Shown piece after piece: positions 3,460 to 52,563 of a DNA stretch of 53,109 bases. This DNA comes from Candidatus Velthaea sp. (GTDB lineage: Bacteria > Vulcanimicrobiota > Vulcanimicrobiia > Vulcanimicrobiales > Vulcanimicrobiaceae). The number at the start of each line of letters is the position of its first letter. The stretch's first letter is position 1. The translations under genes and the position numbers were made by a program. The stretch spans positions 1 through 53,109 of the forward strand of contig JBEKHC010000027.1 in assembly GCA_050012475.1 (NCBI GenBank), in the 5' to 3' direction. Below the pieces are notes generated by a model. It saw nothing but the letters and a program-made list of their open reading frames with translations, was not told the origin of the DNA and ran no database searches.

Positions 3460-3493
3460 CGGCGGCTGCGTTCGGGCGGCTGAGGGAGCACCC

Positions 3494-3778: not shown

Positions 3779-3785
3779 GAGCAGT

Positions 3786-5365: not shown

Positions 5366-6318
5366 GTTCGCGCCAAACGGCGCTGGTCGTCGCCCTCGCC
5401 GCGATCGGTTTGACGCTGGCCCAAGACGTTCGCCCCGGGCTCGATTTTTACCACACCTGGCAGTACGCGGCGGCGATGACGCTGGGCATCATCGTGCTCG
5501 CCGCGTACGCGTGGGGGGCGCGGTCGGGCAGCGACGGCCGCGCCGGACAGTGGGTCGCGCTCGGCCTCGCGGGCGCGCTCGTGGTCGCGATCGACGGGCT
5601 GCTGTCGGGTCTGATCGGACCCGACACGATCACCGTCAGCGGCTCGCCGGGCACCGTGACGCCGGTGCCCGACTTGGCGGCCGCAGCATTTTTCGGGCCG
5701 GCCGATCCCCAGACGATCGCGCGCGGCGACGCGACCGTCTCCCTGCGCCAGAAAGGGGTCGATCCGATCGCAGTTCCCGCAAGCGGCCGGCTCTTTCTCG
5801 GCACCTCGATTGCGTATCTGGCGTCGCGTCCGGCAGCATATATCGTCGCGCACGACGCGCGTGGCAACCGGCTCACCGTCACGCAGCCGACCAATCCGAC
5901 GTTCTTGTCGCCGGTGCTGCTGTTTCCGCAAAGCCAACCGCTGCGCGACAAATCCTATCCGCTCGATACGTTTGCGACGCCCGGCGTTCACCGCATCGCG
6001 CGCGCGCTCTATTTCAGCGCCGACGACGCGCAAACGTTCAATCACCTGGGTTCGCGGCAGCCGGCGCTCGTGCTCTCCGTCAACGACGACAACGGCAAGT
6101 CGGTGGGTCTGACGATCGTGCCCTCGGGCCGCGACGTCGCGATCGGCGATTTGCACATCATCGCGACGCTGGGAACGTTTCCGCAGCTCGTCGTCGCGTC
6201 GGCGCCGCATCCCGCGGTGCTCATCGCCGGGCTGCTGCTCTTCATCGGCGGTGCCGGCGCCGCGCTCATCCCGCCCAAGCGCGGTTCGCGCCTGAGCGTT
6301 TCTGCAGCCGAGACGTAG
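5362..6318 (+). CDS. Membrane protein with ResB/CcsB-like topology (divergent)
   Basis: GTGA overlap with the TlpA gene; three N-terminal hydrophobic helices, a soluble domain and one C-terminal helix; DFYHTW resembles the ResB D-x-Y-H-S-W motif. Confidence 0.6.
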   Translation: MSSRQTALVVALAAIGLTLAQDVRPGLDFYHTWQYAAAMTLGIIVLAAYAWGARSGSDGRAGQWVALGLAGALVVAIDGLLSGLIGPDTITVSGSPGTVTPVPDLAAAAFFGPADPQTIARGDATVSLRQKGVDPIAVPASGRLFLGTSIAYLASRPAAYIVAHDARGNRLTVTQPTNPTFLSPVLLFPQSQPLRDKSYPLDTFATPGVHRIARALYFSADDAQTFNHLGSRQPALVLSVNDDNGKSVGLTIVPSGRDVAIGDLHIIATLGTFPQLVVASAPHPAVLIAGLLLFIGGAGAALIPPKRGSRLSVSAAET

Positions 6319-6320
6319 CG

Positions 6321-25643: not shown

Positions 25644-27311
25644 ATGAGCCGTTTGCTTGGGCTGTTGCTTTGTGCGTGTCTGTTGGCCGGCTGCACCAAG
25701 GTTGGCGACAACCCCGCCCAGCCGGTGCAATCACATCAAGCTGCGGCGCCCGGCGCGCCAAGCGCGGCGAGGAACAGAGCGACGATCGCGCACACGCTGC
25801 GCATCGGAGATACGCAAGACATCACCTCGCTCAATCCGCATCTGGCGACGGCGCTGTCGCTGAACTTCATGTCGCAGATGACGATGGCGTACCTCGTGCG
25901 GTACGGTCACGACAACCGGCCGATTCCCGAGCTTGCCACCGTGGTCCCGACCAAAAAAAATCATCTCATCAGCGGCGACGGTTTGACCATCACCTGGCAT
26001 CTGCGCAAAGGCGTGAAGTGGTCGGACGGCGTGCCGTTCGACGCCGACGACATGGTGTTCTCGACCAATGCCGTCAATAATCCGCAAAACAACGAAGTCG
26101 GGCGTGACGGCTGGGACTTGATCACCAAGATCGACGAACCCGACAAATACACCGTCGTCTTCCATCTCAAGAGGCCCTACTCTGCGTTTCTGCCAACGTT
26201 TTTCGGCTCGGCGGGCGCCAACCCGTGTTTGCTGCCCAAACATCTGCTGGGCACCTTGGCCAACATCAACAACGCCGATTACAATAGCAAGCCGGTGGGC
26301 ATCGGCCCGTTCCGCTATGTGAACTGGGTTCGCGGCGATCATGTCGAACTGGAAGCCAACCCGTACTACTGGCGCGGGACGCCCAAGCTCAAGAAGGTCA
26401 TCTTCAAACTCATTCCCGACAGCAACACGCTGCTGACGCAATTGCAGACCGGCGAGGTCGATTTGTGGCCGCTGGTCGATTCGGGTTTCTACGATCGCGT
26501 GAAAACGCTTTCGGGCCGGACGACGATCCATAGTCCGGGGTACCTCTACAGCCACTTGGACTTCAACCTCAAGCGCGCGGTGTTCGCCGACAAGGCCGTG
26601 CGCGAGGCACTGCGTTACGCAGTCGACCGGCGAACGTTGCGCGATAAGGTCCTGCACGGGCTGGGCGTTCTGCAAGCGGGGCCGCTGTCGCCGGCCAGCC
26701 CACTCTATACGGCGTTGCCGGACGTTCCGTTCGATTTGGCCAAGGCCAATGCATTGCTCGACGCGGCCGGTTGGAAGCGCGGTGCCGACGGCATTCGCGC
26801 GAAAGGCGCCCGTCGGCTGGCGTTCGATTTTGCGCTGACCAGCGGCTCACCCGACGCCGATCAAGAAGTCGAATTGCTGCGCAGCACGTGGCAGCAGATC
26901 GGTGCGCGCATCAACGTGCTGCACTATCCGTCGGCGACGATCTTCGCTCCTTACCAGCAAGGCGGCATCGTTTACGCCGGAAAATTCGACATGGTGACGT
27001 TTTCCTGGCAATTGACGCCCGACGGCGACTTATCGAACGTCTATGAATGCTCGCAGATGCCGCCCAACGGCCAGAATGTGCTGCACTATTGCAATCCGAA
27101 AACTGACGCTCTCTTGCAGCAGTCGAAGGCCGCGTACGATGAGGAACAGCGGCGGCCGATTCTCGCCGCGATCCAAAAACAGATCATCGCCGACGTTCCC
27201 GAAGTGGTGATGTGGATTCGTGAGGACGTGTATTCGTACAACTCGGATTTGACCGGCTGGCACCCGAACAACACGACGCCGTTCGACGACATGCTCGGGG
27301 TCGATCTCTAA
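25644..27311 (+). CDS. Peptide ABC transporter substrate-binding lipoprotein (family 5)
   Basis: LLAGC lipobox; SLNP, KWSDG, PVGIGPFRY and AVREAL motifs. Confidence 0.93.
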   Translation: MSRLLGLLLCACLLAGCTKVGDNPAQPVQSHQAAAPGAPSAARNRATIAHTLRIGDTQDITSLNPHLATALSLNFMSQMTMAYLVRYGHDNRPIPELATVVPTKKNHLISGDGLTITWHLRKGVKWSDGVPFDADDMVFSTNAVNNPQNNEVGRDGWDLITKIDEPDKYTVVFHLKRPYSAFLPTFFGSAGANPCLLPKHLLGTLANINNADYNSKPVGIGPFRYVNWVRGDHVELEANPYYWRGTPKLKKVIFKLIPDSNTLLTQLQTGEVDLWPLVDSGFYDRVKTLSGRTTIHSPGYLYSHLDFNLKRAVFADKAVREALRYAVDRRTLRDKVLHGLGVLQAGPLSPASPLYTALPDVPFDLAKANALLDAAGWKRGADGIRAKGARRLAFDFALTSGSPDADQEVELLRSTWQQIGARINVLHYPSATIFAPYQQGGIVYAGKFDMVTFSWQLTPDGDLSNVYECSQMPPNGQNVLHYCNPKTDALLQQSKAAYDEEQRRPILAAIQKQIIADVPEVVMWIREDVYSYNSDLTGWHPNNTTPFDDMLGVDL

Positions 27312-33575: not shown

Positions 33576-34994
33576 TCACCGGCTCGACAGCGGCAGCGCG
33601 ATGTCTTCGAGGCTCTTGCCTTCGGCATCGACGCCGAAGAGCGCCGCGACCGTTCCGCCGGCGATCATGAGCGCTGCGGCGAAGGCGTAGCCGTAACACA
33701 CGCGCAGCGGGTCGTTGCTGGCGATGAGTGCGCCGAACAACGACGGCGCGACGGCGCCGCCGACGAGCGTTCCGACCGCGAACACGATCGCGATCGCCAG
33801 CGCCCTCGCTTCGAGCGGAAAGATCTCGCTGGCCGTCAAGTAGGCCGCGCTGGCGCCGGCGGAGGCGAAGAAGAAGACGATGGTCCAGCACAGCGTGATC
33901 GTCACCGCGTCGAGCTTGCCGGCGATGAACAGCAGGCCGGTTCCCAACAGCAGCAGACCCGACAAGATGTAGGTGCCCGCGATCAGCGGCCGGCGGCCGA
34001 CGACGTCGAACAAACGTCCCAGCAACAGCGGACCGGCGAGGTTGCCGACGGCGAACGCGAGATAGTAGGCCGGAATCGCGCTGTCGGGCACGTGGAAAAA
34101 CGTGCCCAACACGAGTCCTTGCGTGAACGTGAACGCATTGTAAATGAAGGCCTGGGTCGACATCAGCGTCAACGCGACCAGCGCGCGCGTGCGGTAATCG
34201 CGCCACATCGCGGTGAAGATCGAAGCGAGCGTCGCGCGATGCGCCGTGTCAATCGCGATCCGGCGGTCGCCCGTCGCGGGAAGTTCCCTTGCGTGGTCGC
34301 GACGGATGCGCGTTTCGATCTCGTCGACGATCGTGTGGGCCTCGTCCGGTTTGCCGTGCGTGAGCAGCCAACGCGGACTTTCCGGGACGCTGTTGCGAAC
34401 GAACAGCACCGCAACGGCGAGCAGCGCGCCCGAACCAAACGCCAACCGCCAGCCGTAGCGTTGATCGACGAGGTGCGGATCGAGCAGCACGAGCGCCGCC
34501 AAACTGCCCAGAATCGTTCCCAGCCACCAGGTCCCGTTGATGGCAAGATCCACCGTGCCGCGGTGCCGCGACGGGATCAGCTCGTCGATCGCCGAGTTGA
34601 TGGCAGCGTACTCGCCGCCCAGTCCAAAACCGGTCAGAAATCGAAAGACCAGAAAACTGGTGAAGTTCCAAGAGAACGCCGTCGCGATCGTCAGCGCGAG
34701 ATACATGCCCAGGGTGATGAGGAAGAGTTTCTTGCGGCCGAATTTGTCGGTGAGATAGCCGAAGAACAAGGCCCCGGCCGCAGCGCCGACGAGATACGTG
34801 CTGGCGGCCGCCGTGAACTGCACGTCGTGCAATCCCAAACCATTCGCGGTTTTGAGCGTCGGCGCGACGTTGCCGACGATCGTTACTTCGAGTCCGTCGA
34901 GCACCCAGGTGATGCCGAGGCCGACGACGACCGACCAGTGCCAGCGGCTCCAGGGCAACCGGTCGAGCCGAAACGGGACATCGGATGAGATCAC
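33576..34994 (-). CDS. MFS transporter
   Basis: TDKFGRKK and FDVVGRR MFS loops; RFLTGFGLGGE, VPESPRWL and SEIFPLEAR motifs. Confidence 0.93.
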   Translation of the reverse strand: MISSDVPFRLDRLPWSRWHWSVVVGLGITWVLDGLEVTIVGNVAPTLKTANGLGLHDVQFTAAASTYLVGAAAGALFFGYLTDKFGRKKLFLITLGMYLALTIATAFSWNFTSFLVFRFLTGFGLGGEYAAINSAIDELIPSRHRGTVDLAINGTWWLGTILGSLAALVLLDPHLVDQRYGWRLAFGSGALLAVAVLFVRNSVPESPRWLLTHGKPDEAHTIVDEIETRIRRDHARELPATGDRRIAIDTAHRATLASIFTAMWRDYRTRALVALTLMSTQAFIYNAFTFTQGLVLGTFFHVPDSAIPAYYLAFAVGNLAGPLLLGRLFDVVGRRPLIAGTYILSGLLLLGTGLLFIAGKLDAVTITLCWTIVFFFASAGASAAYLTASEIFPLEARALAIAIVFAVGTLVGGAVAPSLFGALIASNDPLRVCYGYAFAAALMIAGGTVAALFGVDAEGKSLEDIALPLSSR

Positions 34995-39864: not shown

Positions 39865-41085
39865 TTAGAAGGCCGCGATCCCGTTCGGGCTGCCCAGTCC
39901 GGCGGGGCCGCTGTAACCGCTGCCCGCGCTGCACAAGTATGCCGTCGAACACGTGCCGTTCGTGCCGCCGGTGACCGCGAAGAGCGCGCTGCGGTTCGCG
40001 TAGAGCGAGGATGCAGCGTTCAGCTCTGCACCGTTGGCCGCGAGGGCGTAGACGCCGGCGACGATCGGTGTCGAGACGCTGGTGCCGCCCATCTGGATCC
40101 AGCCGCTATCCTGATACGAATCGTACACCGCGACCGGCGTGTTCGGATCGCCGACCGCCGCGACGTCCGCCACGGTCCGCATCGCGCAGCCGCTGTCTGT
40201 TTGCCAGGTGGGCTTGGCGGCATACGCGCTGCAGCCGCTTGCAGTGCCGGACCAGACCGTTTCGGTCCAGCCGCGTGCCGTCGAAGCGGCCGCGACCAAC
40301 GATGTCGCGCCGACCGCGATCACGTTCGGCGCTGCGGCGGGCCAATCGACGCTACCATAGCCTTGATCGCCGGCGGCGGCAACGATCGGAACGCCCGGGT
40401 GCGACCACGCCGCGGCCGATTCGCTTTTCGTTTCGGGGATCGCGTAACTATTGCTCACGACGGTCGCGCCGGCGCTGATCGCGGCCGAAACCGCGGCGGC
40501 CAGATCGCTGCTTTTCGTCGACTTCGCTTCGCTCACGACCAGTTTGCATTGCGGACAAATCGCCGACGCCATGTCGACGTCGATCGAAAACTCGTGCGCC
40601 CAGTTGACGTCGGCTTGCGGCTTATTTTTTGCCGTGAGAACGGTCAAACAGCCGCTGCTCGACGAGCACGCGGGAAGGCCGAAGGTGGAGCGGTACACCG
40701 CTAGATCCGCCTCGAGATTCGGATCGTCGTTGACGGCGACGATCCCGATCGTCTGACCGCTGCCAGCAGTCGCCGACGGTAAATTATACGCACTCTGCAG
40801 ATCGCCCGGATGGAATCCGGGAACCTGGCCGGCCGGCGTCGTCGGACCGTACACGGCGCCGCCGGCGATTTTGACATTCGTGCAGCCGGCGATGCCCGTC
40901 GAGCCGGCCGGACAGCCGGCGGCCAGTGCGCGCGCGCCTTCGCCGGTGCGCTGCGAGCCCACGACGGTCGTGCTGACCGGGGCGCCAGTGCTTGGAACTG
41001 CGGTCGACGACACGCCGGAGCTACATGCGGGTAACGCAAAAACAGCCGTCACGGCGAGCCGTTGGAAAAGTCTCCTTGAAATCAC
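39865..41085 (-). CDS. S53 (sedolisin-type) serine protease lipoprotein, copy 1
   Basis: LPAC lipobox; DLQSAYNLP...GSGQTIGIV, HEFSID (E-x3-D), AAAGDQG oxyanion Asp, GGTS nucleophile and GLGSPNG C-terminus. Confidence 0.88.
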   Translation of the reverse strand: MISRRLFQRLAVTAVFALPACSSGVSSTAVPSTGAPVSTTVVGSQRTGEGARALAAGCPAGSTGIAGCTNVKIAGGAVYGPTTPAGQVPGFHPGDLQSAYNLPSATAGSGQTIGIVAVNDDPNLEADLAVYRSTFGLPACSSSSGCLTVLTAKNKPQADVNWAHEFSIDVDMASAICPQCKLVVSEAKSTKSSDLAAAVSAAISAGATVVSNSYAIPETKSESAAAWSHPGVPIVAAAGDQGYGSVDWPAAAPNVIAVGATSLVAAASTARGWTETVWSGTASGCSAYAAKPTWQTDSGCAMRTVADVAAVGDPNTPVAVYDSYQDSGWIQMGGTSVSTPIVAGVYALAANGAELNAASSLYANRSALFAVTGGTNGTCSTAYLCSAGSGYSGPAGLGSPNGIAAF

Positions 41086-41146
41086 ACGTCCATCCTTTGG
41101 TCCAAGGTCGATCGCCTCGGGCGCTTAAATTCTCTCGTCCGTTTTG

Positions 41147-41174
41147 CTATCGGCACTTCGTCAAGCAAACATTA
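41147..41174 (-). promoter_or_regulatory. Sigma28-like promoter of S53 copy 1
   Basis: Minus strand TAATGTTT-N12-GCCGATAG versus the E. coli sigma28 consensus TAAAGTTT-N11-GCCGATAA. Confidence 0.65.
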
Positions 41175-41182
41175 CCTGGACG

Positions 41183-44100
41183 TTACGGAATCTTGAGCGT
41201 CGGCGCTTTGCCGAGCCGGCCGAGCACGACGCGGACCATCGCCTCGACGACCTCGGGATCGAATTGCGTTCCGCGGTTGCGGTCGAGTTCGTCGAGTGCC
41301 TCCATCGGTGAAAGCGGCAGGCGGTACGGGCGCCGCCCGATCATCGCGTTGAACGAGTCGGCGACGGCGACGATGCGCGAAGCCAGCGGGATCGCGCCGG
41401 ACCGCAGTCCGTCGGGATAGCCGCCGCCGTCGAGGCGCTCGTGGTGAGCGCGCACGACCGGCACGAGCGGTGCCAACACCGGCACGCGGCCCAGGATGCG
41501 GCCGCCTTCCGCGGCGTGATCGCGCATGATCGCCCATTCATCCGGACTGAGCCGGCGCGGCGCGTCGAGGATTGCCGACGGCGTGCGCATCTTGCCGATA
41601 TCGTGGATGAGGCCGCTGCGCGAAACGTACGTGATTTCATCTTGCGTCAAGCCGAGGACGCGGCCCAAGCGCGCACACCATGCCGAGACCGCCCGCGAAT
41701 GTTCGGCCATCAGCGGTGCGGCTTCATCGAGCCGTTCGATGAGCGCTTCGATCGACGCGTCGACGTTTTCGGCCAGCCGGACGAAGCCCGGAGCGGTGGG
41801 GAGAAACGCCGCGACCTGTTGGCGCACGGTGCCCAACGCCTCCGGCGCGCTACGCTCGAGGCCGGCCTGTTCGGTCGCCCAGTGCTCGAATCGCGCGCGC
41901 AGGCCGCTCTCGCCGGACTGCGGCGCTGGGGCCGCCGCGAACCAGCCGCGCAGCGAGCCCGCATCGCCGCATTCGACGGCAGCCGCGAAGCGCTCCGCCG
42001 GATCTTGGCGAGCCAGGATCGCGCCGATAGTCTCGCTCGCGCGCGCGGACCGGCGCGGCAATGCCTCGATCAACTTTGCCATGCCGCCGAAGGACACGTT
42101 CCACAGTTTCGCGAGCGGGACGGTAAGCTCGCGCGCAAAGCGTTCCGGGTCGGCCCAGCCGGCGATCATCGCCCCGACGACGCCGCGCAGCGCGCGCAAC
42201 CGTGGCGCCGTCCCGAGCGTGAGGTCGTCGGCCGCATTTGTCCAGCGGCGGGCTGCGTCGACATCGTCACCGGCGAGCGCCGCCAGGGCGAGCGTGAGCA
42301 ACGCCAACCCATATTGGGTTGGCCGTTCGGAGCACGCGCGCAATGCGTCGCGGGCTTTGCCGCACGCCTCCTGGGCGGCATGCGCTTCGCCGGCCGCCGC
42401 GCAATACAATGCGATCCACGCCCAGCACGACGCCGTGCGCGCCGGCGTTCCTTGATGCTCGGCGGTCGGCCGAAGGAGCCGTTGCGCTGCATCGAAGTCG
42501 CCGCTCCAGCCCGCGCGCAGCGCCTTTGCGGGGAGCAGCGTCTCCATCGTCGCGGCGGTGCCGTCGTGCTTTTCGATCGTCGCGAGCTGACGATCGAGTT
42601 CCGCGATCGCTTCTTCGTTGCCGGCTTCGACGTGCAATTCATACGTGCAGAGCGTGACGTAGAGATCGAAACGCAGCGTTCCCGACCTGATCCCGACGTT
42701 GCGCATGCACTCCAGATACTCCAAGCACGCGGCGGCGTCGTCGTCGCAGTCGTACGCGATCTGATAGAGCACCGAATAGGTTGAGGCGGCGACGTCGTAG
42801 AGACAGTTTGCTTCCGCCAGCGGTGCCGCGATGCGCGCACGTTCGCGCGCCAGCACCGGGTCGCCGCTTTCGATGGCGACGTACGCCGCTCGGGCGAGAA
42901 CGCGAGCGCGCAGCGCCTCCGATGAGTTCGGGTCGAGCTGCGCCAGCGCTGCGTTCGTTTGCGCGACTGCTTCGTTCAGGCGGTTTGCGGCGGTCAGCGC
43001 CTGACCGAACGACGATCGAACGTCGGTGAGAACGGCGCGCGGGAGCGTCGTCGAGTCGACGAACGGAGCCAGCACGTCGCAGGCGTCGTCACGCCGGCGC
43101 AGGGCCAGCTCGCGCGCATAATACGTCGCGATGGCAACGCGCACCGCTTCGTCGTCCGCCTTCTCCAAACCGAGCCGAAACCAGGCTTCGGCCGTGTCGA
43201 GCCGCCCGCCGCGCGCTTCGAGGTAGCCGCGCAGAGCGGTCGCGCTCGCACCCAGCGATTGTTCGGGCGTGCCGAAAGCCTGCAGCGTTTCGTTGACGAC
43301 ATCGACCTCGCCGGCTTCCAGAATCTCGAAACCATGCGCGTCGAGCAGCCGGCTCATCGGATCGATCAGGCGGTTGCGGGTGGCGACCTCCAGCGCCGCG
43401 GCCGGGCGGCCGGAGAGCGTCAGCGCCTCGACTGCTCCCAGCGCGATGACCGCTCGCATTTCGGGAGCGCACGATCGAAATTGCCGGTCGAGATAGTCGC
43501 GGAAGCGGTCGTGAAAGCGAAGGTTTCCGTCGACTTGCCGGTCCCACAGAAACCCCGCGTCTTCGCTGAGCGCGCGGATGATGGCCGGCGCATCGTCCCA
43601 TCCGCAGAGCGCGAGCAACTGGCCGTCGGTGCTCGGAAGCAGCGTCGCGCTAAACAGAAATGCGCGTTCCGCTGCGGTACGCCGGGCAAAGATTCGACCC
43701 GCGATGGCGGCGAAGTCTGCCGGGATGCCTTCGGCGGTGAACTCGTGCGGATCGCAGCGCAAGCGCGTGAGGGCGTAGTCGACGGCGATCGCCAATCCGC
43801 CGGTCGCCGCGCACAGCGTGTCGACTTCCCGGGAATCGAGTCCGAGACCCGAACGCCGGGCTGCCTGCGCGATCTCGTCGTGCGTGAATCGCAGTTCTGC
43901 TTCGTCGATGGGGCGCTCCATCCGCCGCGTCGCCATCCAGAGCGGGATGGGGAGCGCGCCGACGCTGCGGACCGTCAGCGTCAGGGGCGAGTCCGGCCGG
44001 AGTTCGACCAGCTTGGCGATGAAGGCGGCGATGCTCGGATCGTCGGCGGCGTGCAGATCGTCGACGACGAGGTGCCGCTCGATGCCGTGCACGTGTTCGG

Positions 44101-44443
44101 CCAACCAATGGGCGAGCACGATCGCCGGTGCGGGAGATTGCAGCGCTCGTTCCCACGCTCGGGGAAACGACGCTTGGGCTCCCGGAGCAGCGCCGGCGAC
44201 CGCGCAGGCCAGTCCGTGAACGAAGCGCGCGAACGTCGTTACACCGTTGCCGGCCCGAAAATAGATCGCGTTCGGGTCGGACCGCAACGGCCGCACGAGT
44301 TCGCTCTTGCCCGCGCCGGGCGGCCCGGCGATGACGGCGATCGAAGCCGCGGCAGGTCCGGCCAATCGGCCTTCGAGGCGTGGGCGGGAGAGATGTTCGC
44401 GCGCCTCGTCGCCGGAGCGCGGTTGTCGATCGAGCAGCATCAT
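41183..44443 (-). CDS. MalT/LAL-type STAND NTPase-helical repeat protein fused to a C-terminal HD-GYP phosphodiesterase, copy 1
   Basis: RPRL, GPPGAGKS, LVVDDLH, LRFTHDE and FHDRFRDYL MalT-like motifs; C-terminal EHS, HDIGK, RDH, HHERLDGGGYPDGL, VAD, RPYR and GTQFDP. Confidence 0.88.
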   Translation of the reverse strand: MMLLDRQPRSGDEAREHLSRPRLEGRLAGPAAASIAVIAGPPGAGKSELVRPLRSDPNAIYFRAGNGVTTFARFVHGLACAVAGAAPGAQASFPRAWERALQSPAPAIVLAHWLAEHVHGIERHLVVDDLHAADDPSIAAFIAKLVELRPDSPLTLTVRSVGALPIPLWMATRRMERPIDEAELRFTHDEIAQAARRSGLGLDSREVDTLCAATGGLAIAVDYALTRLRCDPHEFTAEGIPADFAAIAGRIFARRTAAERAFLFSATLLPSTDGQLLALCGWDDAPAIIRALSEDAGFLWDRQVDGNLRFHDRFRDYLDRQFRSCAPEMRAVIALGAVEALTLSGRPAAALEVATRNRLIDPMSRLLDAHGFEILEAGEVDVVNETLQAFGTPEQSLGASATALRGYLEARGGRLDTAEAWFRLGLEKADDEAVRVAIATYYARELALRRRDDACDVLAPFVDSTTLPRAVLTDVRSSFGQALTAANRLNEAVAQTNAALAQLDPNSSEALRARVLARAAYVAIESGDPVLARERARIAAPLAEANCLYDVAASTYSVLYQIAYDCDDDAAACLEYLECMRNVGIRSGTLRFDLYVTLCTYELHVEAGNEEAIAELDRQLATIEKHDGTAATMETLLPAKALRAGWSGDFDAAQRLLRPTAEHQGTPARTASCWAWIALYCAAAGEAHAAQEACGKARDALRACSERPTQYGLALLTLALAALAGDDVDAARRWTNAADDLTLGTAPRLRALRGVVGAMIAGWADPERFARELTVPLAKLWNVSFGGMAKLIEALPRRSARASETIGAILARQDPAERFAAAVECGDAGSLRGWFAAAPAPQSGESGLRARFEHWATEQAGLERSAPEALGTVRQQVAAFLPTAPGFVRLAENVDASIEALIERLDEAAPLMAEHSRAVSAWCARLGRVLGLTQDEITYVSRSGLIHDIGKMRTPSAILDAPRRLSPDEWAIMRDHAAEGGRILGRVPVLAPLVPVVRAHHERLDGGGYPDGLRSGAIPLASRIVAVADSFNAMIGRRPYRLPLSPMEALDELDRNRGTQFDPEVVEAMVRVVLGRLGKAPTLKIP

Positions 44444-44615
44444 GCGTTGAGCATCGGTGACGTCGGACTACTCCTCGGAAAGGGGGCAGCGGCGCCGGTG
44501 TCCTGTTCTTGTCATCGGTCAACCGACGCGCAAACGCGAGGAACGGCAGCGGCGCAAGCGGTGCGCGCGGGCGAGGCGCTCCGCTTGCGCATCGTGCGCA
44601 AGAGGTGGAACCGCG

Positions 44616-45851
44616 TTAGAAGGCCGCGATGCCGTCGGGCGAGCCCATGCCGGACGGGCCGTTATAGCCGGCTTCGGCGGTGCAAAGATACGCGACCGTG
44701 CAGATTCCGTTCGAGCCGGATGTCACCGGGAACAGCGAACTCGCGTGGGTGTACAGCGATTGCGCGCCGGTGAGCGAGGCGCCGTTGCCGGCCAGTGCGT
44801 AGACACCGGCGACGATCGGGGCCGAGACGCTCGTTCCACCCATTTGGATCCAGCCATTGTCCTCATACGTGTCGTAGACGGCGACGGGCGTATTGGGATC
44901 GCCGACCGCTGCCACGTCGGCAACGGTGCGCATCGAACAACCGGAGTCCAGCTGCCAGGACGGTTTCGCGGCGACGGCGCTGCAGGCACTGCCGGTTCCG
45001 GACCATGCCGTTTCCGTCCAGCCGCGCGCCGTTGCAGCGTTGGCGGTCAGGGTGGTCGCGCCGACCGCGATGACGTCGGTCGCCGCCGCCGGCCAGTTCG
45101 CCGTCGAGTAGCCGGTATCGCCGGCCGCAGCAACGATCGGCACGCCGGTATGAGCCCACGTCGCGTTGGCTTCGGGAGCCGATTCCGGGATCGCAAAGCT
45201 GTTGCTCACGACGGTGGCGCCGTCTTTGACGACCGCAGCGTCGGCGCCCACGAGATTGACCGCCGCATTGGTGGCGATCTGCGCGACGATCAGTTTGCAA
45301 TTGGGACATACCGCGGAGGCCATGTCGACGTCGATCGACGCTTCGTGCGCCCAATTCGCGCTCGCAGCCGGCGCGCCGGTTCCGGTCAAAATCTTCAAGC
45401 AGCCGCTCGCGGACGTGCAGGCTGGCAAACCGAACGTCTTGCGATACACCGCGAGATCGCTTTCAAGGTTCGCGTCGGTGCCAATGACGACGATGCCGAT
45501 CGTCTGTCCCTTGCCCGCGGTCGAAGCGGGCAGTTTGTAGGCCGACTGCAGATCGGCGGGGTGAAAGCCGGGGATCTGCGCGGCCGTCGCGCTCGCGCCC
45601 AGCGCGGTACCCGCAACTTCGATGTTGGTGCAGTTACCGGTTTCGAGAACGGCCGCCGTCCCCGAGCAATTCGCGGCAAATGCGCGCGCGCTTTCGACCG
45701 ACCGTTTCGCGATCGTGGTGCTGACGGCGCCGGTGTCCGTCGCGGAAGCTTGCGTCGTGGGAACTTGCGCCGAGGAACCGCCGGTGCTGCACGCGGGCAA
45801 CGCGAAGACTGCGCAGACGGCGATGCCTTGGAACAATCGATTTTTGAACAA
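44616..45851 (-). CDS. S53 (sedolisin-type) serine protease lipoprotein, copy 2
   Basis: LPAC lipobox; HEASID, AAAGDTG, GGTS and GMGSPDGIAAF; colinear paralog of 39865-41085. Confidence 0.88.
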   Translation of the reverse strand: MFKNRLFQGIAVCAVFALPACSTGGSSAQVPTTQASATDTGAVSTTIAKRSVESARAFAANCSGTAAVLETGNCTNIEVAGTALGASATAAQIPGFHPADLQSAYKLPASTAGKGQTIGIVVIGTDANLESDLAVYRKTFGLPACTSASGCLKILTGTGAPAASANWAHEASIDVDMASAVCPNCKLIVAQIATNAAVNLVGADAAVVKDGATVVSNSFAIPESAPEANATWAHTGVPIVAAAGDTGYSTANWPAAATDVIAVGATTLTANAATARGWTETAWSGTGSACSAVAAKPSWQLDSGCSMRTVADVAAVGDPNTPVAVYDTYEDNGWIQMGGTSVSAPIVAGVYALAGNGASLTGAQSLYTHASSLFPVTSGSNGICTVAYLCTAEAGYNGPSGMGSPDGIAAF

Positions 45852-45897
45852 AATTCCGCCCTAATCTTGATGCCGAAAGGAGTGTATGGTTCCTGTG

Positions 45898-45924
45898 TTA
45901 TCGGCACTTCGTAAGGGAAATGTA
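45898..45924 (-). promoter_or_regulatory. Sigma28-like promoter of S53 copy 2
   Basis: Minus strand TACA-N15-GCCGATAA; shares the 14-mer ACGAAGTGCCGATA with the copy 1 promoter. Confidence 0.65.
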
Positions 45925-48900
45925 AGGTTTCGGTTCGGGAATCTTGATCGCTCCGGGATCGGCGAGGCGTCCTGCCACGACGCGAACCATCGCCTCGACC
46001 ACCTCGGGATCGAACTGCGTTCCGCGGTGGCGTTCGAGTTCGCTCAGAGCGTCGGGGGGTGAAAGCGGCAAGCGATAGGGGCGCCGACCGATCATTGCGT
46101 TGAAGCAGTCGGCGACGGTCACGATGCGCGTCGTGAGCGGGATCGCGCTCGAACGCAAGCCGTCGGGGTAGCCTCGGCCGTCAAGACGCTCGTGGTGGCC
46201 GCGGACGATCGGGATCAGCGGTTCGAGCAGCGAGATACCAGCGACGATGCGTGCGCCTTCGGCGGCATGATCGCGCATGATGAGCCATTCTTGCTCGGTC
46301 AGCGCACGCGGAGCGTTCAAGATCTCGGGCGGGGTGCGAATTTTGCCGATGTCGTGGATCAGCCCGCAGCGAGCTGCAAACAAGATGTGCTCTTCATCGA
46401 GGCCCAGAGCCCGGGCGACGCGTGCGCACCAGGCCGAGACGGCACGCGAATGTTCGGCCATCAGCGGCGCGGCTACGTCCAAGCCGTCGACGAGGTCGGC
46501 CAATGCCGCATCGATGTCGTCGTCGACGCGAGCCGGCGACCGCGGGCGCCGGCGATAGGCTCCGAGCTCTCGGCGAACGTGGCCGACTTGCGCCCTTCGC
46601 TCGCGCGCCAAACCGGGGTGCGCGCCGGCCCAGCGTTCGAACTGCTCCGGCAGTGGAGCACCGCAGAAGATCGAGTCGGGTGCCGCATCGAGCCACCGAC
46701 CCAACGAGCCGGCTTCATCTCCGCCGGCAACTACGGCGGCGAAGCGGTTCATCAACTCGCGGCGTGCCAAGACGCTGCCGATTGTTTCGTTCGAGCGCCC
46801 CGGTGCGAATCGGTACGGCAACGCCTCGATGAGTTTCGCCATGCCGCCGAACCAATGTCGGCGCAACCCGTCGAGGACGCTCGGGATGGCCCGATCGAAG
46901 CGCTGCGTGTCGGTCGACGCGTCGATCAGCGCGTTGACCGCGCAGTGCAGCGCGTGGAGCCGGGGCGCGCGGGAGCTCGTCGTTCGATCCGCGCGGCTCG
47001 CCCATTCAGAAGCGCGGTGGACATCGCCGTTGACCCACGCCGTGAGCGCCAGCGTCAGCAGCGCCAAGCCGAACTGCACCGAGGCGGAAGCGGCATGCGA
47101 CAACTCGGCTTCGGCCTTGTGAACGGCCGCATCCGACTGCTCGGGATCGCCGCCCGCTGCGCTGTAGAGCCCGATCTGCGCCCAACACAAGGCTTTGCGC
47201 GCCGGCGTCGCCTGATGTTCGACGGTCGCTCGCAAGAGTCGCCCGGCCGCCGCAAAATCTCCCCTCCACCCCGCTTGGAGGGCCTTCCCCGGAACCAGGG
47301 TCTCCATAACGGCCAGGGCCGTATCGTGTTTGTCGATGACCGCGATCTGGCGGTCGAGCGCGTTCAACGCTTCCTCGTCGCCGGCTTCGGCATCGAGTTC
47401 GTAGAGGCAAAGCAGGACGTAGGATTCGAGCCGCAGCGTTCCCGATTTGATGCCCAGGTCGCGCAGCCGGCAGAGATGGTCGCGGCTCGCGACGGCGTCG
47501 TCGTCGATATCGTACGCGATCTGATACAGCACCGAGTACGTCGAGGCGGCGACGTCGTACAGTGACTGGCTGATCGCGAGCGGTGCGGCAATGAACGCGC
47601 GCTCGCGTGCGAGTTCGGCGTCGCCGCTCTCGAGCGCGACGTAGGCGGCGCGGGCGAAAACGCGCGCGCGGAGCGCAGGCGGCGAGCCGGCTTCGAGCAG
47701 CGCCAACGCTTCATTCGTTCGCGCGCACGCTTCGTCCAGCCGGTTGGCGGCCGTGAGCGCCTGCGCGAACGACGATTGAACGTCGATGAGTTCGGAGCGC
47801 GCGAGCGTGGGCGAGTCGACAAACGGCGCCATGATTTCCCAAGCGTCTTCGCGGCGCCGAACCGCTAACTCGCGTGCATAGTACATCGCGATGCCCAGCC
47901 GCACCGACTCGTCGTGAGCCTTGGACAAGCCCAGCCGAAACCACGCCTCGGCCGTGTCGAGGTGCCCGCGTCGCGCCTCGAGGTACCCGCGCAATGCGCT
48001 TGCGCTCGGCCCGAGCGCTTCTTCGGGGCCGTCGCAGGCACCCAGCGCTTCGCCGATCACGTCGATTTCGCCGGATTCGAGAATCTCGAAGCCGCGTTCA
48101 TCGAGCAGATCGCGTGCCGCTTCGATCAGACCTTGCTTGGTGGCGACTTCGAGCGCTTCGGCGTGACGGCCGGCGGCCGCAAGCGAATCGACGGTTTGGT
48201 GGGCGATGCGCGAACGGAACTCGCGTGTGCAGTCCAGGAAATGGCGGTCGAGATAGGTGCGAAAGCGGTCGTGGAAAGCGATGCCGCCCGCGCTGCGCGT
48301 TTCCCACATGAACGGCGCATCGCTGCTCATGGCGCTGCGCAAAGCGGGGGCATCGTCCCAGCCCGATAAGCCCAGCAGTTCGTCTTCGATCGTCGGGAAG
48401 AGTGCGGCGCTGCGCAAAAAAGCGCGTTCGCGTTCGGTTCTCCGTGCGAAAACGCAATCGGCGATGGCCTCGAAATTCCGCGGAGCACTGCGACGAGAAA
48501 ACGCGAACGGATCGCGGCGCAGTCGCGTCAGCGCGTACGCGAGTGCTATCGCGGATCCGCCCGTGGCCGTGAGCAACGCGTCCACTTCGTGGTCGTACAG
48601 CTTGAGGCCGTGGTGCGCGGCGATGGCGAACGCTTCGGAGCGGTCGAAGCACAGTTCGCTTTCGTCGATCGGCCGTTCCATGCGCCGGGTCGCCATCCAC
48701 AGCGCGATCGGCAAAGCGCCGACGCTGCGAGCGGCAATGGTGAGCGCCGCGTTCGGCCGCAGTTCAGCGAGCTTGCCGATGAATGCGGCGATGCTCGGGT
48801 CGTCGCCGGCGGCGTGCAGGTCGTCGATGACGATCCGTTGATCGAGACCCTGCAGATGCTCGCAGAACCAGTGCGCAAGGACGATTGCGGGCGCGGGCGA

Positions 48901-49203
48901 TTGGAGTGCTCGCTCCCAGGCCCGCGGGAACGACGCTTGCGCCCCGGGGGCGAGCGTCGCACTTGCTTGGGCAAGCCCGTGAACGAAACGCCCGAAGGTT
49001 GCGCGCTCGTTGCCGGCGCGAAAGAAGATCGCTTGGGGATCCGCGCGGAACGGTCGCAAGAGGTCGCTCTTGCCCGATCCGGGCGGTCCGACGAGCACCA
49101 CGATCGGCGCCGCGACGGGCCCTGTCAACCGGCATTCGAGCCGCGGCCGGCCGATCCGATCGACGGGACATGCGTGCGTGGGCGTCTGTGGTTCGAGCAG
49201 CAT
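45898..49203 (-). CDS. MalT/LAL-type STAND NTPase-helical repeat protein fused to a C-terminal HD-GYP phosphodiesterase, copy 2
   Basis: GPPGSGKS, IVIDDLH and FHDRFRTYL; HDIGK, HHERLDGRGYPDGL, RPYR and GTQFDP; start set by alignment with the N-terminus of copy 1. Confidence 0.88.
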   Translation of the reverse strand: MLLEPQTPTHACPVDRIGRPRLECRLTGPVAAPIVVLVGPPGSGKSDLLRPFRADPQAIFFRAGNERATFGRFVHGLAQASATLAPGAQASFPRAWERALQSPAPAIVLAHWFCEHLQGLDQRIVIDDLHAAGDDPSIAAFIGKLAELRPNAALTIAARSVGALPIALWMATRRMERPIDESELCFDRSEAFAIAAHHGLKLYDHEVDALLTATGGSAIALAYALTRLRRDPFAFSRRSAPRNFEAIADCVFARRTERERAFLRSAALFPTIEDELLGLSGWDDAPALRSAMSSDAPFMWETRSAGGIAFHDRFRTYLDRHFLDCTREFRSRIAHQTVDSLAAAGRHAEALEVATKQGLIEAARDLLDERGFEILESGEIDVIGEALGACDGPEEALGPSASALRGYLEARRGHLDTAEAWFRLGLSKAHDESVRLGIAMYYARELAVRRREDAWEIMAPFVDSPTLARSELIDVQSSFAQALTAANRLDEACARTNEALALLEAGSPPALRARVFARAAYVALESGDAELARERAFIAAPLAISQSLYDVAASTYSVLYQIAYDIDDDAVASRDHLCRLRDLGIKSGTLRLESYVLLCLYELDAEAGDEEALNALDRQIAVIDKHDTALAVMETLVPGKALQAGWRGDFAAAGRLLRATVEHQATPARKALCWAQIGLYSAAGGDPEQSDAAVHKAEAELSHAASASVQFGLALLTLALTAWVNGDVHRASEWASRADRTTSSRAPRLHALHCAVNALIDASTDTQRFDRAIPSVLDGLRRHWFGGMAKLIEALPYRFAPGRSNETIGSVLARRELMNRFAAVVAGGDEAGSLGRWLDAAPDSIFCGAPLPEQFERWAGAHPGLARERRAQVGHVRRELGAYRRRPRSPARVDDDIDAALADLVDGLDVAAPLMAEHSRAVSAWCARVARALGLDEEHILFAARCGLIHDIGKIRTPPEILNAPRALTEQEWLIMRDHAAEGARIVAGISLLEPLIPIVRGHHERLDGRGYPDGLRSSAIPLTTRIVTVADCFNAMIGRRPYRLPLSPPDALSELERHRGTQFDPEVVEAMVRVVAGRLADPGAIKIPEPKPYISLTKCR

Positions 49204-49268
49204 CAACCGTTCGACGTGAGGACGTGCGATAGTCCGGTGCCCCGGAATGGGCCAGCCGGCTCTTTTCG

Positions 49269-49296
49269 TTATCGGCTGATGGGCAACCCAAGAATA
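49269..49296 (-). promoter_or_regulatory. Sigma28-like promoter of STAND-HD-GYP copy 2
   Basis: Minus strand TATT-N16-GCCGATAA, 65 nt upstream of the ATG. Confidence 0.55.
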
Positions 49297-49349
49297 CAAG
49301 CGTGAAAGCGGACGCCGGGGGCGGCTCCCGGTCGGCCGAAGGTCACGCG

Positions 49350-50012
49350 ATGCTCGATCCACGCGCAGCGCTCCTGGCGACCCGCACGTACGGCGTGCTC
49401 GTCGGCCGGGTCAAAGCCGGTCGCCTCGATCCCAGCGGCGCGTCGCCGCATTACGAAATCTGGATTGACGCCGGGCGCCCGTACCGCATCGCCGTCAATG
49501 TGCGTTCGGTCGACGGGTCCGAAGTGCTCGTCCACTACGACCCCGCGTACGGCTCGCCGACCAAACGTGACCTGCCTGTGCTGGCGGCGGGGGCGCCCGG
49601 CTTCATACCGCTGGAGACCGGCCCCGGCGGTGCCGGTCTCGACTATCTTCGTGACGGCCTGTTCGCGCTCGCCGACATGCATCCGATCCCGCCCGACGGC
49701 ACGGGCGTGACGCTGCAGAACCTGCTCGACGGCCAGATTCAACGCGCCGTTGCCGATCCGGCAGCCGTCGCGATCGCGTTCGGCGACGGATTTCAAGATC
49801 CAGGCAGCGATCCGACGTTCGGATTCTCGCCCGAAAACGGCGTGCATGACATCCATATGATGCAGGGCAACAGCGGAAGCTTTGCCGCCGACAACCGCAT
49901 CAACGGCGACGGCGCGCTGTTCGTGCGCTATGCCGGCGGCGCGACGCTGGCACTGTTCGTTCGTTTCGCCACGCAATCGACGGTGACGGGCGATGGCGGC
50001 GCGCCGGTTTGA
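49350..50012 (+). CDS. DUF2278/YukJ-family protein
   Basis: PHYEI, YRIAVNVRS, GLDYLR and GVHDIHMMQGN...DGALF motifs. Start uncertain (49302 or 49350). Confidence 0.8.
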   Translation: MLDPRAALLATRTYGVLVGRVKAGRLDPSGASPHYEIWIDAGRPYRIAVNVRSVDGSEVLVHYDPAYGSPTKRDLPVLAAGAPGFIPLETGPGGAGLDYLRDGLFALADMHPIPPDGTGVTLQNLLDGQIQRAVADPAAVAIAFGDGFQDPGSDPTFGFSPENGVHDIHMMQGNSGSFAADNRINGDGALFVRYAGGATLALFVRFATQSTVTGDGGAPV

Positions 50013-50013: not shown

Positions 50014-51486
50014 CTATGCCGTTGCGCGCCGATCGGCGCTCGCAGGGCGGGCGAAGCAGTACGTGTTCTTCCCGAGCGCCTTGGCCGCGTACATCGCTGC
50101 ATCGGCAGCTTGCATCAACGCGAGTGCCTGATGCCCGTGCGCGGGATACATGGCAATGCCGATCGAGACGCCGACCCGGACGAGATGCCCTTGCACTTGC
50201 AAGGGCACGTTGATGGCGCTGATCATGCTTGCGGCGATGCGCTCTACGGGCTCCTCACCGCGAATGTTGAGGATCAAGGCCACGAACTCATCGCCGCCGA
50301 TCCGCGCCACCATGTCGGTGCGCCGGGTGAGCCGCTGAAGCGTCCGCGCCACGTTTTCGAGTAACGTGTCGCCCACGCCATGACCATAGCGGTCGTTGAC
50401 GGCCTTGAACCCATCGAGGTCGAAGAACATGACCGCCAGGCACTCCGCGTCGCGCTCGGCGATGGCGATCTCGTCGTCGAGCCGATCGATGAACACGGAA
50501 CGGTTCGGCAGATTGGTCAGCTCATCGTGGTACGCAAGATGCCGGATTCGTTCGCTCTTGTGCCAGTGCTCGGTGATGTCGCTGAAGACCGAAACGAAGC
50601 GGACGGCTTGACCGGCGGCGTTGCGGATCATCGTGATCGTTTGGCGCTCCATGAACGTCTCGCCGTTCTTGCGCCGGTTCCAGATCTCGCCCTGCCAGCG
50701 GCCGTTGGTCGTCAACTCACGCCATAGCGCGCGGAAAAATTCCGGACCCTGACGATCGGATTTGAGAAAGCGCGGATTCTTGCCGACGGCGTCGGCAAGT
50801 GAATAGCCCGTGATCTCGGTAAAGGCCGGATTCACCGAGACGATCGTGCCCTCGGCATCGGTAACGAAGATACCGTCGGCCGCGTGATTGAAGACGGCGG
50901 CCCCGATTTCGAGTTGAGCCTCGGCATTCTTCACGACCGTGATATCGTTGACGAAGACGAAAAAACCTAAAACATGCCCCGCCGGGTCGATGTCCGGATT
51001 GTAGTTGACCAGCAGATGGCGGATGCTGCCGTCGCTCTTGGGCACGGTGCGCTCGTAGCAGAGCTTCTCGCCCGCGAGCGCCGCTCGGAGGTAGGGCTCG
51101 TTCTCGCGGAAGAAGCGCTCATCCACCAGTTCGCGGTAGTGCGTCCCCAGCACCGATTCCGGCGTTTTTCCGAACCAATCGAAAAAGGCGCGGTTGGCGT
51201 AGCGGCAAAGCAGCTCCGCGTCCCAATACGCGACCGTTCCGGGCAGAGCATCGATGATCGTTGCGAGAAACGTTTCTCGTTGTGCCCCGGCCCAGCGCCT
51301 TACCGGACCATTTTCGTTCAATTCGTTTGCCTCGAACCCGGGCAGCGTACGTGGCCCGTACCGATGTTTTCGTCCGAGGCGGCGCTTGACTTGAGCCTTC
51401 ACTCCCCGAAGGGGGAGCTCGAGCGAACGCGCGCTCGAATTGTACGCGCGCTCGAATTGTAAACGGTGGTCCCCGGCTGAATTCAT
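50014..51486 (-). CDS. PAS-PAS-GGDEF diguanylate cyclase
   Basis: Two PAS/PAC domains; HDELTNLPNR, FFDLDGFKAVNDRYGHGVGD, RRTD (RxxD I-site), ARIGGDEF and ADAAMYAAK motifs. The true start may be ~100-170 nt further into the ORF. Confidence 0.92.
   Translation of the reverse strand: MNSAGDHRLQFERAYNSSARSLELPLRGVKAQVKRRLGRKHRYGPRTLPGFEANELNENGPVRRWAGAQRETFLATIIDALPGTVAYWDAELLCRYANRAFFDWFGKTPESVLGTHYRELVDERFFRENEPYLRAALAGEKLCYERTVPKSDGSIRHLLVNYNPDIDPAGHVLGFFVFVNDITVVKNAEAQLEIGAAVFNHAADGIFVTDAEGTIVSVNPAFTEITGYSLADAVGKNPRFLKSDRQGPEFFRALWRELTTNGRWQGEIWNRRKNGETFMERQTITMIRNAAGQAVRFVSVFSDITEHWHKSERIRHLAYHDELTNLPNRSVFIDRLDDEIAIAERDAECLAVMFFDLDGFKAVNDRYGHGVGDTLLENVARTLQRLTRRTDMVARIGGDEFVALILNIRGEEPVERIAASMISAINVPLQVQGHLVRVGVSIGIAMYPAHGHQALALMQAADAAMYAAKALGKNTYCFARPASADRRATA
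51427..51460. repeat. Perfect 17-bp tandem direct repeat
   Basis: ACGCGCGCTCGAATTGT at 51427-51443 and 51444-51460. Confidence 0.85.
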
Positions 51487-51529
51487 TAGACCGGAACAGA
51501 TGCTTCTCCGACACAATCGTGGGTCGGCC

Positions 51530-51561
51530 GTGGTGTTGATAAGGGGGGTTATCAGCACCAC
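51530..51561. other. Putative tyrosine-recombinase crossover site (13-6-13)
   Basis: GTGGTGTTGATAA-GGGGGG-TTATCAGCACCAC: arms are 12/13 complementary, with a dif-like ATAA-N6-TTAT centre, 24 nt upstream of the recombinase ATG. Confidence 0.75.
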
Positions 51562-51585
51562 AGGCACCACTTTCGGCCGACTCGA

Positions 51586-52563
51586 ATGACCCCCAGCGTG
51601 ATCGACGTTCCGCCGTCAGCCTCCCCAACCGTCGCCCGGGCCGTCACCACCGCGCGCAAGCTCATCGCCGGCGCGACCTCCGAGAACACGCGGCGCAGCT
51701 ACGCGACGGGCTGGCGACAGTTGAGCGCCCACGCGCAGAGCCTCGGACTCGAGCCGCTGGGGGCGCACCCAGCCCTTGTCGCCACCTTTCTTGGGTCGCT
51801 TCGCGACGGCGGGGCCTCGGCTCAGACTCTCGGCTCCCGGGCCGCGGCGATCCGGTTCTTTCATCGCGCGGCGGGCCTGGCGTCGCCGACCGATCAGCGG
51901 GTGGTGCGCGACCTGCTCGAAGGCGCCAGACGCGAAGACGCCGGCCGCGACCACGGCCGGGCGACCATTACCGCGAAGCGGCTCGCCGCAAGCATCGAAC
52001 TCCAAGGCCCGCCGGCGACGCCGATCGCGATCCGCGACCGCGCGATTCTACTCCTCACGTTCGCCTCGGGCCGGCGGCGGGCTGAGATCGCGGCCCTTAA
52101 CATCGAGGACCTCGACTTCGGCCGGCCTGGCTTTCTGATCGTGACGATCCGCAAGAGCAAGACCGACCAGGGTGGGGCGGGACAGTTTGTGGCGGTGCCG
52201 CGGCTCGAACACGGGCCGTGCGCAGTGGCAGCGGTTGAAGCGTGGCTGGCGATTCGCGAGCAGAAGAAGGGACCGCTGTTCGTCGCGTTTTCACCGCACG
52301 GCGAGCTCCGCGAAACGCGGATCGAGGGGCGGCTCGTGGCCGAAGTCCTGAAGCGACTCTTCCGGGATGCCGGTGCCTCACGGAGCGACGTCGACGCGAT
52401 CGGCGCCCATAGTCTGCGCCGGGGGTTCGTGACGTCGGCCGACATGGCCGGCGCGACGACCGCGCAAATCATGGACGTGACGGGACATCGGGATCCGAAG
52501 TCGCTGCGCCGTTACACCCGCCGCGAGTTGCTGCACGATCCGGTGCTCCTAAAGCTCTTTTAA
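51586..52563 (+). CDS. Cre-like tyrosine recombinase/resolvase
   Basis: SENTRRSY core-binding domain; RDRAILLL...GRRRAEI, KSKTDQ, HSLRRG and TGH...LRRY give the complete R-K-H-R-H-Y catalytic set. Confidence 0.93.
   Translation: MTPSVIDVPPSASPTVARAVTTARKLIAGATSENTRRSYATGWRQLSAHAQSLGLEPLGAHPALVATFLGSLRDGGASAQTLGSRAAAIRFFHRAAGLASPTDQRVVRDLLEGARREDAGRDHGRATITAKRLAASIELQGPPATPIAIRDRAILLLTFASGRRRAEIAALNIEDLDFGRPGFLIVTIRKSKTDQGGAGQFVAVPRLEHGPCAVAAVEAWLAIREQKKGPLFVAFSPHGELRETRIEGRLVAEVLKRLFRDAGASRSDVDAIGAHSLRRGFVTSADMAGATTAQIMDVTGHRDPKSLRRYTRRELLHDPVLLKLF

Follow-up and report, generated by a model that had tools for sequence, protein, structure and literature searches.

A candidate peptide-signaling module pairing a MalT/PH0952-type STAND receptor with an HD-GYP phosphodiesterase in Vulcanimicrobiaceae

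Cytoplasmic peptide receptors of the RRNPP group (Rap/Phr, NprR/NprX, PlcR/PapR, Rgg/SHP, PrgX) are helix-turn-helix (HTH)-TPR or three-helix-TPR proteins without an ATPase. To our knowledge, most bacterial STAND proteins of the MalT/LAL type have no known ligand. RRNPP peptides enter the cell via an oligopeptide permease (PMC10617681, available portion), and for MalT, which senses an imported catabolite, STAND activation by an inducer bound in the TPR sensor and ATP-driven oligomerization are established (PMC6468293, available portion). The window analyzed here is a whole contig of 53,109 nucleotides from Candidatus Velthaea sp., family Vulcanimicrobiaceae (JBEKHC010000027.1, assembly GCA_050012475.1; contig C27 of a 5.36-Mb genome, 64% GC). 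It carries four minus-strand genes in which a STAND-HD-GYP protein is followed by an S53 lipoprotein protease twice, head to tail, as the initial annotation of this DNA had claimed. The module is probably an RRNPP-like peptide circuit, with the STAND receptor controlling cyclic-dinucleotide breakdown; cleavage, import, binding, regulatory sign and substrate are the parts that we infer. Direct observation shows that the genes are linked and share descent, that the motif is module specific, that protease-free precursors can take the place of the protease, and that the catalytic residues are intact.

Like RRNPP systems, the module has a secreted precursor of a putative short peptide encoded beside a cytosolic TPR-type receptor, and its candidate peptides are clade specific. 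Unlike them, its receptor carries a full STAND ATPase switch, the candidate peptide is part of a protease tether or of a precursor with several copies, the predicted output is cyclic-dinucleotide hydrolysis, and the host is a diderm. The proposed circuit works like RRNPP signaling but is not a member of that family, because its receptor is a STAND ATPase.

The module is real and family-wide. The STAND part (E 1e-60) has matches in 118 of 296 same-family genomes and in 0 of 105 genomes of 20 other families, and the HD-GYP subfamily in 167 of 347 family genomes; these tallies, like those for S53, include the unpublished genomes G213, G238, G246, G248, G329, G360, G391 and G427, which the locus counts exclude. 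Loci were sampled as 120 of the best 150 of 306 HD-GYP matches, ranked by similarity to the query; those left out were five from the genome under study, eight from unpublished genomes, and 17 that were mostly short contigs or second copies within a sampled region. The sample covers 86 genomes and 31 genera, but 51 of the 117 STAND-linked loci come from a single genus; because kin are non-independent, the linkage figures are descriptive counts. A MalT-like STAND gene lies directly upstream of the HD-GYP gene in 117 of 120 loci, and a same-strand S53 gene directly adjoins 87 of these 117 (60 downstream, 27 upstream). The adjacency holds in 75 of 100 untruncated loci, in 22 of 30 genera, and in 40 of 66 loci outside the dominant genus. 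Distances in the STAND and S53 trees are correlated (Spearman 0.70, 74 loci), and the nearest STAND neighbor is within the top three S53 neighbors in 57 of 74 loci. Between the two window copies, the STAND gene shows a Nei-Gojobori ratio of nonsynonymous to synonymous substitution (dN/dS) of 0.33, with 0.18-0.50 for its individual domains, and the S53 gene a ratio of 0.21; with dS near 1, these values are rough. Adjacency, correlated trees and low dN/dS bear out the initial proposal that the pair is kept as a unit.

A scan for related loci was dominated by generic HD-GYP matches, and only L031 and L110 were STAND-linked; L031, which has the same module, comes from Ca. Elarobacter, a member of Vulcanimicrobiaceae (Eremiobacterota). 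A sensor profile returned 271 representatives at E 1e-30 and 844 at 1e-10; as these carry no taxonomy, the range beyond the family rests on the 0 of 105 genomes of other families. In the ESM Atlas, the sensor had TPR leads below 0.9 only, and a precursor had no match.

Most modules are split, with an HD-GYP partner of ~315 residues whose gene shows an ATGA-type overlap with the STAND stop codon in 65 of 102 cases, and 65 of 89 intact split STANDs end at most 20 residues past the sensor. The N-terminal domain (~140 residues) of the split HD-GYP partners gave no Pfam match. True STAND-HD-GYP fusions number 10 of 117, plus the doubtful L208, and sit at three separate places of the STAND tree (a placement made without a formal one-clade test). 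The fused protein initially described is a derived minority form, since HD-GYP more commonly has a gene of its own or gives way to a LuxR HTH. All nine STAND-HTH loci lacking HD-GYP among L005-L030 have an adjacent S53 gene, each with at least two copies of the peptide core described below, which argues that the old unit is a STAND plus an exported partner and that the output can be swapped. Judged from sequence, an ancestral unit of STAND and peptide precursor, with LuxR HTH, HD-GYP in trans or fused HD-GYP as interchangeable outputs, is more likely than a fused protein as ancestor.

The conserved partner, as far as sequence can tell, is a short peptide and not the protease domain. The disordered tether of the module S53s carries a core, x-Ala-hydrophobic-Pro/Ala, which in several unrelated clades forms perfect tandem repeats of 7-8 residues (for example in L261, L271, L285, L289, L302 and L303). 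A core at least 14 residues past the lipobox was found in 78 of 83 module tethers, where shuffles gave an expectation of 27.9; this figure is partly circular, because the pattern was drawn from the module set itself, which tempers the case and makes the two non-circular control sets matter. Both came from 40 loci centered on S53 matches, five of which turned out to be modules. Four of these five have the core (0.67 expected), and the fifth, L317, has three repeats of a variant. Among unlinked S53s the core was present in 7 of 39 (7.75 expected). One unlinked repeat-bearing S53, L352, is from the same genome as L245, a partnerless STAND at a contig end, and both group near L273.

Where no S53 gene adjoins the STAND (n = 30), other exported partners commonly take its place, and these loci make the strongest case for a peptide as the conserved partner. 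Fifteen of these loci have a small secreted precursor tail-to-tail with HD-GYP; the precursors share a signal peptide, 14 of the 15 contain a heptapeptide of similar general form in 2-8 copies, and the first copy mostly follows directly after an Ala-x-Ala signal-peptidase site (by eye). The STANDs of 12 of the 15 are in the tree, all in one clade (support 1.0). In addition, L220 and L265 have a tether-only lipoprotein without a protease domain, L224 and L251 have a secreted peptide of 45-48 residues like one found on contig C6 of the genome under study, and the S53 gene of L201 is cut by a contig end. In 107 of 117 loci, the STAND has a neighboring S53, tether-only lipoprotein or small secreted protein, and core types follow STAND clades. 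The precursor profile matches no S53-bearing module and nothing in the genome under study.

Several other small genes were seen beside such modules. A second peptide type, comprising secreted proteins of 45-51 residues with a common five-residue C-terminus (C6, ~34130-34290, minus strand; L224 and L251, downstream of HD-GYP), adjoins a STAND-HTH plus HD-GYP clade of the window genus in a Phr-like layout. L308 is a rearranged module in which a tether-only lipoprotein (3268-3816), whose 10-residue repeat occurs six times, is encoded between HD-GYP and a fragment of a STAND gene. A protein of ~190 residues with a C-terminal LuxR-like HTH recurs beside precursor-type modules (10 loci, seven genera), lying just downstream of the precursor in L262, L266, L268, L270, L272, L274 and L275, often with a GGDEF-EAL gene upstream; it is possibly the lost HTH output supplied in trans.

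The two window receptors are copy a (41183-44443, minus strand; 1086 amino acids, P0001) and copy b (45898-49203, minus strand; 1101 amino acids, P0012). Copy b is arranged as a nucleotide-binding domain (NBD), helical domain and winged-helix domain followed by an arm, a TPR-like sensor, a helical linker and HD-GYP. In copy a, the NBD spans residues 15-185 (43889-44401, minus strand), with Walker A at G43-S47 and Walker B at D128, and the modeled TPR-like superhelix, presumably the peptide-binding domain, spans residues 431-795 (42059-43153, minus strand). Pfam reported HD_5 and weak AAA_16/22 matches, and the NCBIfam MalT match was weak (score 64, cut-off 537). In the AlphaFold model of copy a (mean predicted local distance difference test [pLDDT] score 84; helices 327-794), the STAND part matches E. 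coli MalT and P. horikoshii PH0952 best among solved structures and the tail matches HD-GYP structures. The nucleotide-binding oligomerization domain (NOD) aligns with MalT 8BOB at Z 31.8 (root-mean-square deviation [rmsd] 3.2, 381 residues aligned), and the alignment with PH0952 6MFV reaches Z 22.9 over 594 residues. Walker residues are conserved among the STANDs (G45 in 106, K46 in 104 and D128 in 95 of 106). The modeled core with Walker A/B, the arm and the TPR-type sensor identify a STAND NTPase.

This NOD-arm-TPR sensor architecture is shared with MalT/PH0952-type STANDs, and some module relatives retain the C-terminal LuxR HTH of MalT (13 of 117 HD-GYP-linked loci by a three-sequence profile, plus the nine HTH-only loci). 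Unlike in MalT, the effector is HD-GYP, fused or in trans, the HTH is lost in most relatives, and the presumed ligand is a self-encoded peptide, not the maltotriose of the E. coli protein. The LuxR HTH effector of MalT/LAL activators is absent from the C-terminus of both window proteins, which have HD-GYP instead; the window receptor is a STAND of MalT/PH0952 type, not a MalT/LAL transcription factor. Structural alignment of the sensor with Rap and NprR in their peptide-bound form gives Z 13.4-15.2 (rmsd 4.7-5.5, 328-343 residues aligned, 7-8% identity). When the L285 sensor (alignment of 74 rows) was co-folded with a 32-residue piece of its own tether that includes the repeats, the score was 0.02 against a mark of 0.32, which speaks neither for nor against binding.

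The HD-GYP domain of copy a covers residues 889-1075 (41219-41779, minus strand). Across 121 sequences, the metal ligands (H, HD, H, HH, D) and GYP are retained in 120-121 per position, and R1038, Y1040 and R1041 of the guanine-binding RxY[K/R] motif in all 121. The KPG motif is replaced by APR (A961 in 121, R963 in 120 of 121), and the equivalent of Glu185, position 911, is Leu in 93 of 121, its four commonest residues all being non-acidic. Module enzymes thus resemble known HD-GYP phosphodiesterases (PmGH, PA4781 and V-cGAP3, the last being the best match) in their invariant or near-invariant HD, HHE, GYP, last Asp and RxY[K/R], and differ from them in APR, in an acidic residue directly preceding the first His, and in the missing Glu185 equivalent. 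By the HD-GYP survey 10.1101/2021.11.05.467447, this pattern suggests a binuclear HD-GYP with the guanine-specific motif kept and the second-base pocket changed, which likely stops at pGpG. The effect of KPG loss is hard to judge, because the KPG contact described in that survey is made via main-chain carbonyls. The initial claim of coupling to breakdown of cyclic di-GMP (c-di-GMP) needs qualifying: with KPG lost, c-di-GMP is the likely yet unproven substrate. The main text of the same survey, as available, makes no mention of AAA, TPR or MalT architectures.

The S53 proteases are S53 a (39865-41085, minus strand; catalytic E165, D169, D240 and S336) and S53 b, of sedolisin type (44616-45851, minus strand; lipobox Cys21). 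S53 b has no Pfam match. The protease profile matches kumamolisin best (E 2e-36). Counted from alignment columns, the Glu-Asp-Ser triad and oxyanion Asp are present in 88, 87, 88 and 87 of 89 module S53s, so proteolysis appears to be selected. Module S53s share with sedolisins such as kumamolisin and sedolisin the Glu-x3-Asp, oxyanion Asp and Ser nucleophile, and unlike them are lipoproteins with a core-bearing tether and no classical prodomain: ~40 disordered residues (21-62 in S53 a; pLDDT < 50 in the model) separate the lipobox from the catalytic region, with no Pfam prodomain match. At two positions, presumably calcium ligands, an Asp retained by 35 and 34 of 40 unlinked S53s is mostly replaced in module S53s. 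In genus g4, the HD-GYP subfamily occurs in 0 of 91 genomes, but the S53 family is expanded without evident reason, with 5-14 matches in each of the genomes listed.

With the register inferred from the stand-alone precursors, the candidate signal heptapeptide is residues 49-55 of S53 a (40921-40941, minus strand) and residues 53-59 of S53 b (45675-45695, minus strand), each a single copy, that of S53 b being an Ala-hydrophobic-Ala variant of the family core. The two differ at two of seven positions, so the tandem units are probably two channels. As initially described, the copies are clearly diverged (61% protein identity for STAND-HD-GYP, 64% for S53) with all catalytic motifs intact: Walker A/B, HD, HHE, GYP, RxxR and the S53 Glu/Asp/Asp/Ser set. 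Both units are under purifying selection. DNA identity between the units is 70-82% in repeat blocks spaced 4751-4763 nucleotides apart, so the tandem unit is not an assembly duplicate. The S53b-STANDa junction (44088-45099) is bridged by a contig of an independent study with 0 differences and the STANDb-S53b junction by contigs from two studies; two of three gene junctions are thus bridged independently, and no single piece among the listed independent contigs covers the whole stretch. Near-identical DNA occurs in soil and peat metagenomes, and the listed holders include no RNA data set. A tree of fused homologues has two sister groups, one joining copy a to P0002-P0006 and the other joining copy b to P0007, P0010 and P0011 (supports 1.0, 1.0 and 0.999), placing the tandem units as an old, retained duplication. 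In another genus, the split module has become a tandem array independently, in L271 and L278 (STAND, HD-GYP, S53, STAND, HD-GYP).

With five modules in the genome, two of them in the window, nothing about the system is less unusual than the duplication itself. On C7, a third fused gene is followed by S53; this copy (59561-62560, minus strand) has lost the greater part of the helical linker that joins the sensor to HD-GYP. A fusion can therefore dispense with the linker, which may be a docking domain in split forms. The C12 module has the order S53, STAND with HTH and separate HD-GYP, and the C6 module consists of STAND-HTH and separate HD-GYP followed by a 51-residue secreted peptide. C68 carries a related S53 without a STAND.

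The shared promoter motif initially noted is real as a sigma-28-like bipartite site before both S53 genes and is confined to this genus, with 0 of 83 loci outside it. Sites were scored against a sigma-28 consensus and compared with those before the genome's own flagellin genes, and represent consensus matches only. The site before S53 a lies at 41147-41174 (minus strand; -35 at 41167-41174, -10 at 41147-41154; 2 of 16 mismatches) and that before S53 b at 45898-45924 (minus strand; -35 at 45917-45924, -10 at 45898-45905; 3 of 16), overlapping the final codons and stop of STAND-HD-GYP b. A score of 4 or better was reached before seven of nine S53 genes of the genus, compared with 15 of 3000 random windows. 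The data argue against a sigma-28 promoter across the family: upstream of S53 genes the -10 element by itself is no commoner than in shuffles, and the bipartite site is absent outside the genus. The genome encodes FliA and flagellins, and three of four flagellin genes have weaker sigma-28-like sites (3, 5 and 6 mismatches) ~99 nucleotides upstream of their matches. The suggested motility link is plausible in this genus through these elements. No sigma-70 matches were found, and terminator-like sites occurred only at chance level.

In the proposed circuit, the exported partner would be a peptide precursor, in the window an S53 lipoprotein with one core in its disordered tether. Extracytoplasmic processing, probably tether cutting by S53 itself and favored at acid pH, would free a peptide of ~7 residues, x-x-x-x-Ala-hydrophobic-Pro (Ala for Pro in this genus). 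This peptide would be imported, probably by an Opp-type permease (the genome encodes 13 family-5 solute-binding proteins), and bind the TPR-like sensor of its cognate STAND, which would swap ADP for ATP, oligomerize and switch the HD-GYP phosphodiesterase, fused in the window and a translationally coupled partner in most relatives. Cyclic-dinucleotide levels would then change, most likely by conversion of c-di-GMP to pGpG, and in this genus the sigma-28-like promoter of the precursor gene would tie the signal to the flagellar phase. The initial annotation had suggested imported proteolysis products as ligand; a peptide ligand is retained, and a dedicated peptide from the S53 tether or a stand-alone precursor is more likely than general products.

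Several points weigh against this circuit. Peptide binding, cleavage and the enzymatic steps are its presumed parts, and no peptide transporter gene is conserved beside the modules in the sampled loci. The Z-scores with Rap and NprR are near the general helical-repeat level, and LGN scores higher. With KPG changed to APR across the subfamily, the substrate may differ. Ten of 117 loci have no recognized partner, including the fused copy L191 of the window genus, and a STAND-LuxR gene on C22 lacks S53. A loose automatic tandem-repeat count found repeats in 22 of 83 modules, but also in 4 of 39 unlinked S53s. The tracking of STAND clades by peptide type would also follow from co-descent alone. 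Each window tether has a single core, placed three residues ahead of a conserved Cys, and its release needs a second cut.

That single-copy state also fits the best surviving alternative, an unlikely one in our view, in which the module is a cell-autonomous protease or pH alarm: acid- or stress-induced self-cleavage of periplasmic S53 would be told to the STAND by a peptide acting on its producer only. S53 enzymes are acid-active, and five studies have peat metagenomes with near-identical DNA. The lineage is diderm (PMC9758169, available portion), and the precursor is a lipoprotein anchored in the membrane. However, protease-free secreted precursors with up to eight copies better fit amplification and export, and paralogous modules with different cores likewise speak against an alarm.

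Also improbable is a role of the core within S53 itself, as a propeptide element for autocleavage or inhibition, a substrate-like P4-P1 strand in which Pro blocks cleavage; the STAND would sense another cue and regulate the neighboring protease, and the stand-alone repeat proteins would be inhibitors or decoys. Hydrophobic-x-Ala-hydrophobic does resemble the C-termini of subtilase propeptides, these S53s lack a classical prodomain, and one short strand is modeled at the core, but with pLDDT < 50. Unlinked S53s of the same family, however, show the core only at chance level, and it persists, repeated, in protease-free precursors, always beside one STAND clade. Sensing of general peptides cut by S53 from outside proteins, as a nutrient or host cue, is a distinctly poor candidate: the catalytic set intact in 87-88 of 89 module S53s and the imported catabolite sensed by MalT are in its favor, but module-specific cores, repeats and catalytically empty replacement precursors are left unexplained. 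An anti-phage or conflict system, an Avs-like STAND with a nucleotide-degrading effector, is very improbable despite the STAND-TPR architecture and a weak Avs3 match in the fold search (E 3e-5), since the only PADLOC matches are weak ones of Cas3-HD type to the HD domain, the partner is exported, the alternative output is a LuxR HTH, and the flanks hold housekeeping and signaling genes without conserved defense neighbors.

Upstream of the array lie a 236-amino-acid protein (49302-50012, minus strand) without a Pfam match, which is DUF2278/YukJ-like by motif, a PAS-PAS-GGDEF diguanylate cyclase (50014-51570, minus strand) and a tyrosine recombinase (51586-52563, plus strand). The contig also encodes three family-5 (Opp-type) solute-binding proteins (5511-7949, 23976-25619 and 25644-27311). 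The STAND-LuxR gene on C22 (28220-35849) lies between a lanthionine-dehydratase-like gene and YcaO/azole-type genes for ribosomally synthesized and post-translationally modified peptides (by eye), with no S53 or precursor recognized.

A literature search, to which most subscription journals were closed, found no description of this system, and the words peptidase, protease and c-di-GMP do not occur in the V. alpinum paper (PMC9758169, main text as available). The case is evenly balanced for an undescribed peptide-communication family, in which an NLR-like STAND would be the receptor for a self-made heptapeptide, the pheromone would sit, frequently as tandem copies, in the tether of its releasing protease or in a stand-alone precursor, interchangeable outputs would connect it to transcription or to c-di-GMP, and each genome would hold several orthogonal channels, two of them in the window. 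As a candidate ligand lies beside each receptor and dozens of natural receptor-peptide pairs exist, this is directly testable with synthetic heptapeptides and purified receptor protein. If true, the module would represent a peptide-signaling family unrelated to RRNPP in a diderm soil lineage, in which an NLR-like switch serves communication, not immunity or sugar sensing, and peptide signals are tied directly to c-di-GMP turnover; it would also offer orthogonal peptide-gated switches for engineering.

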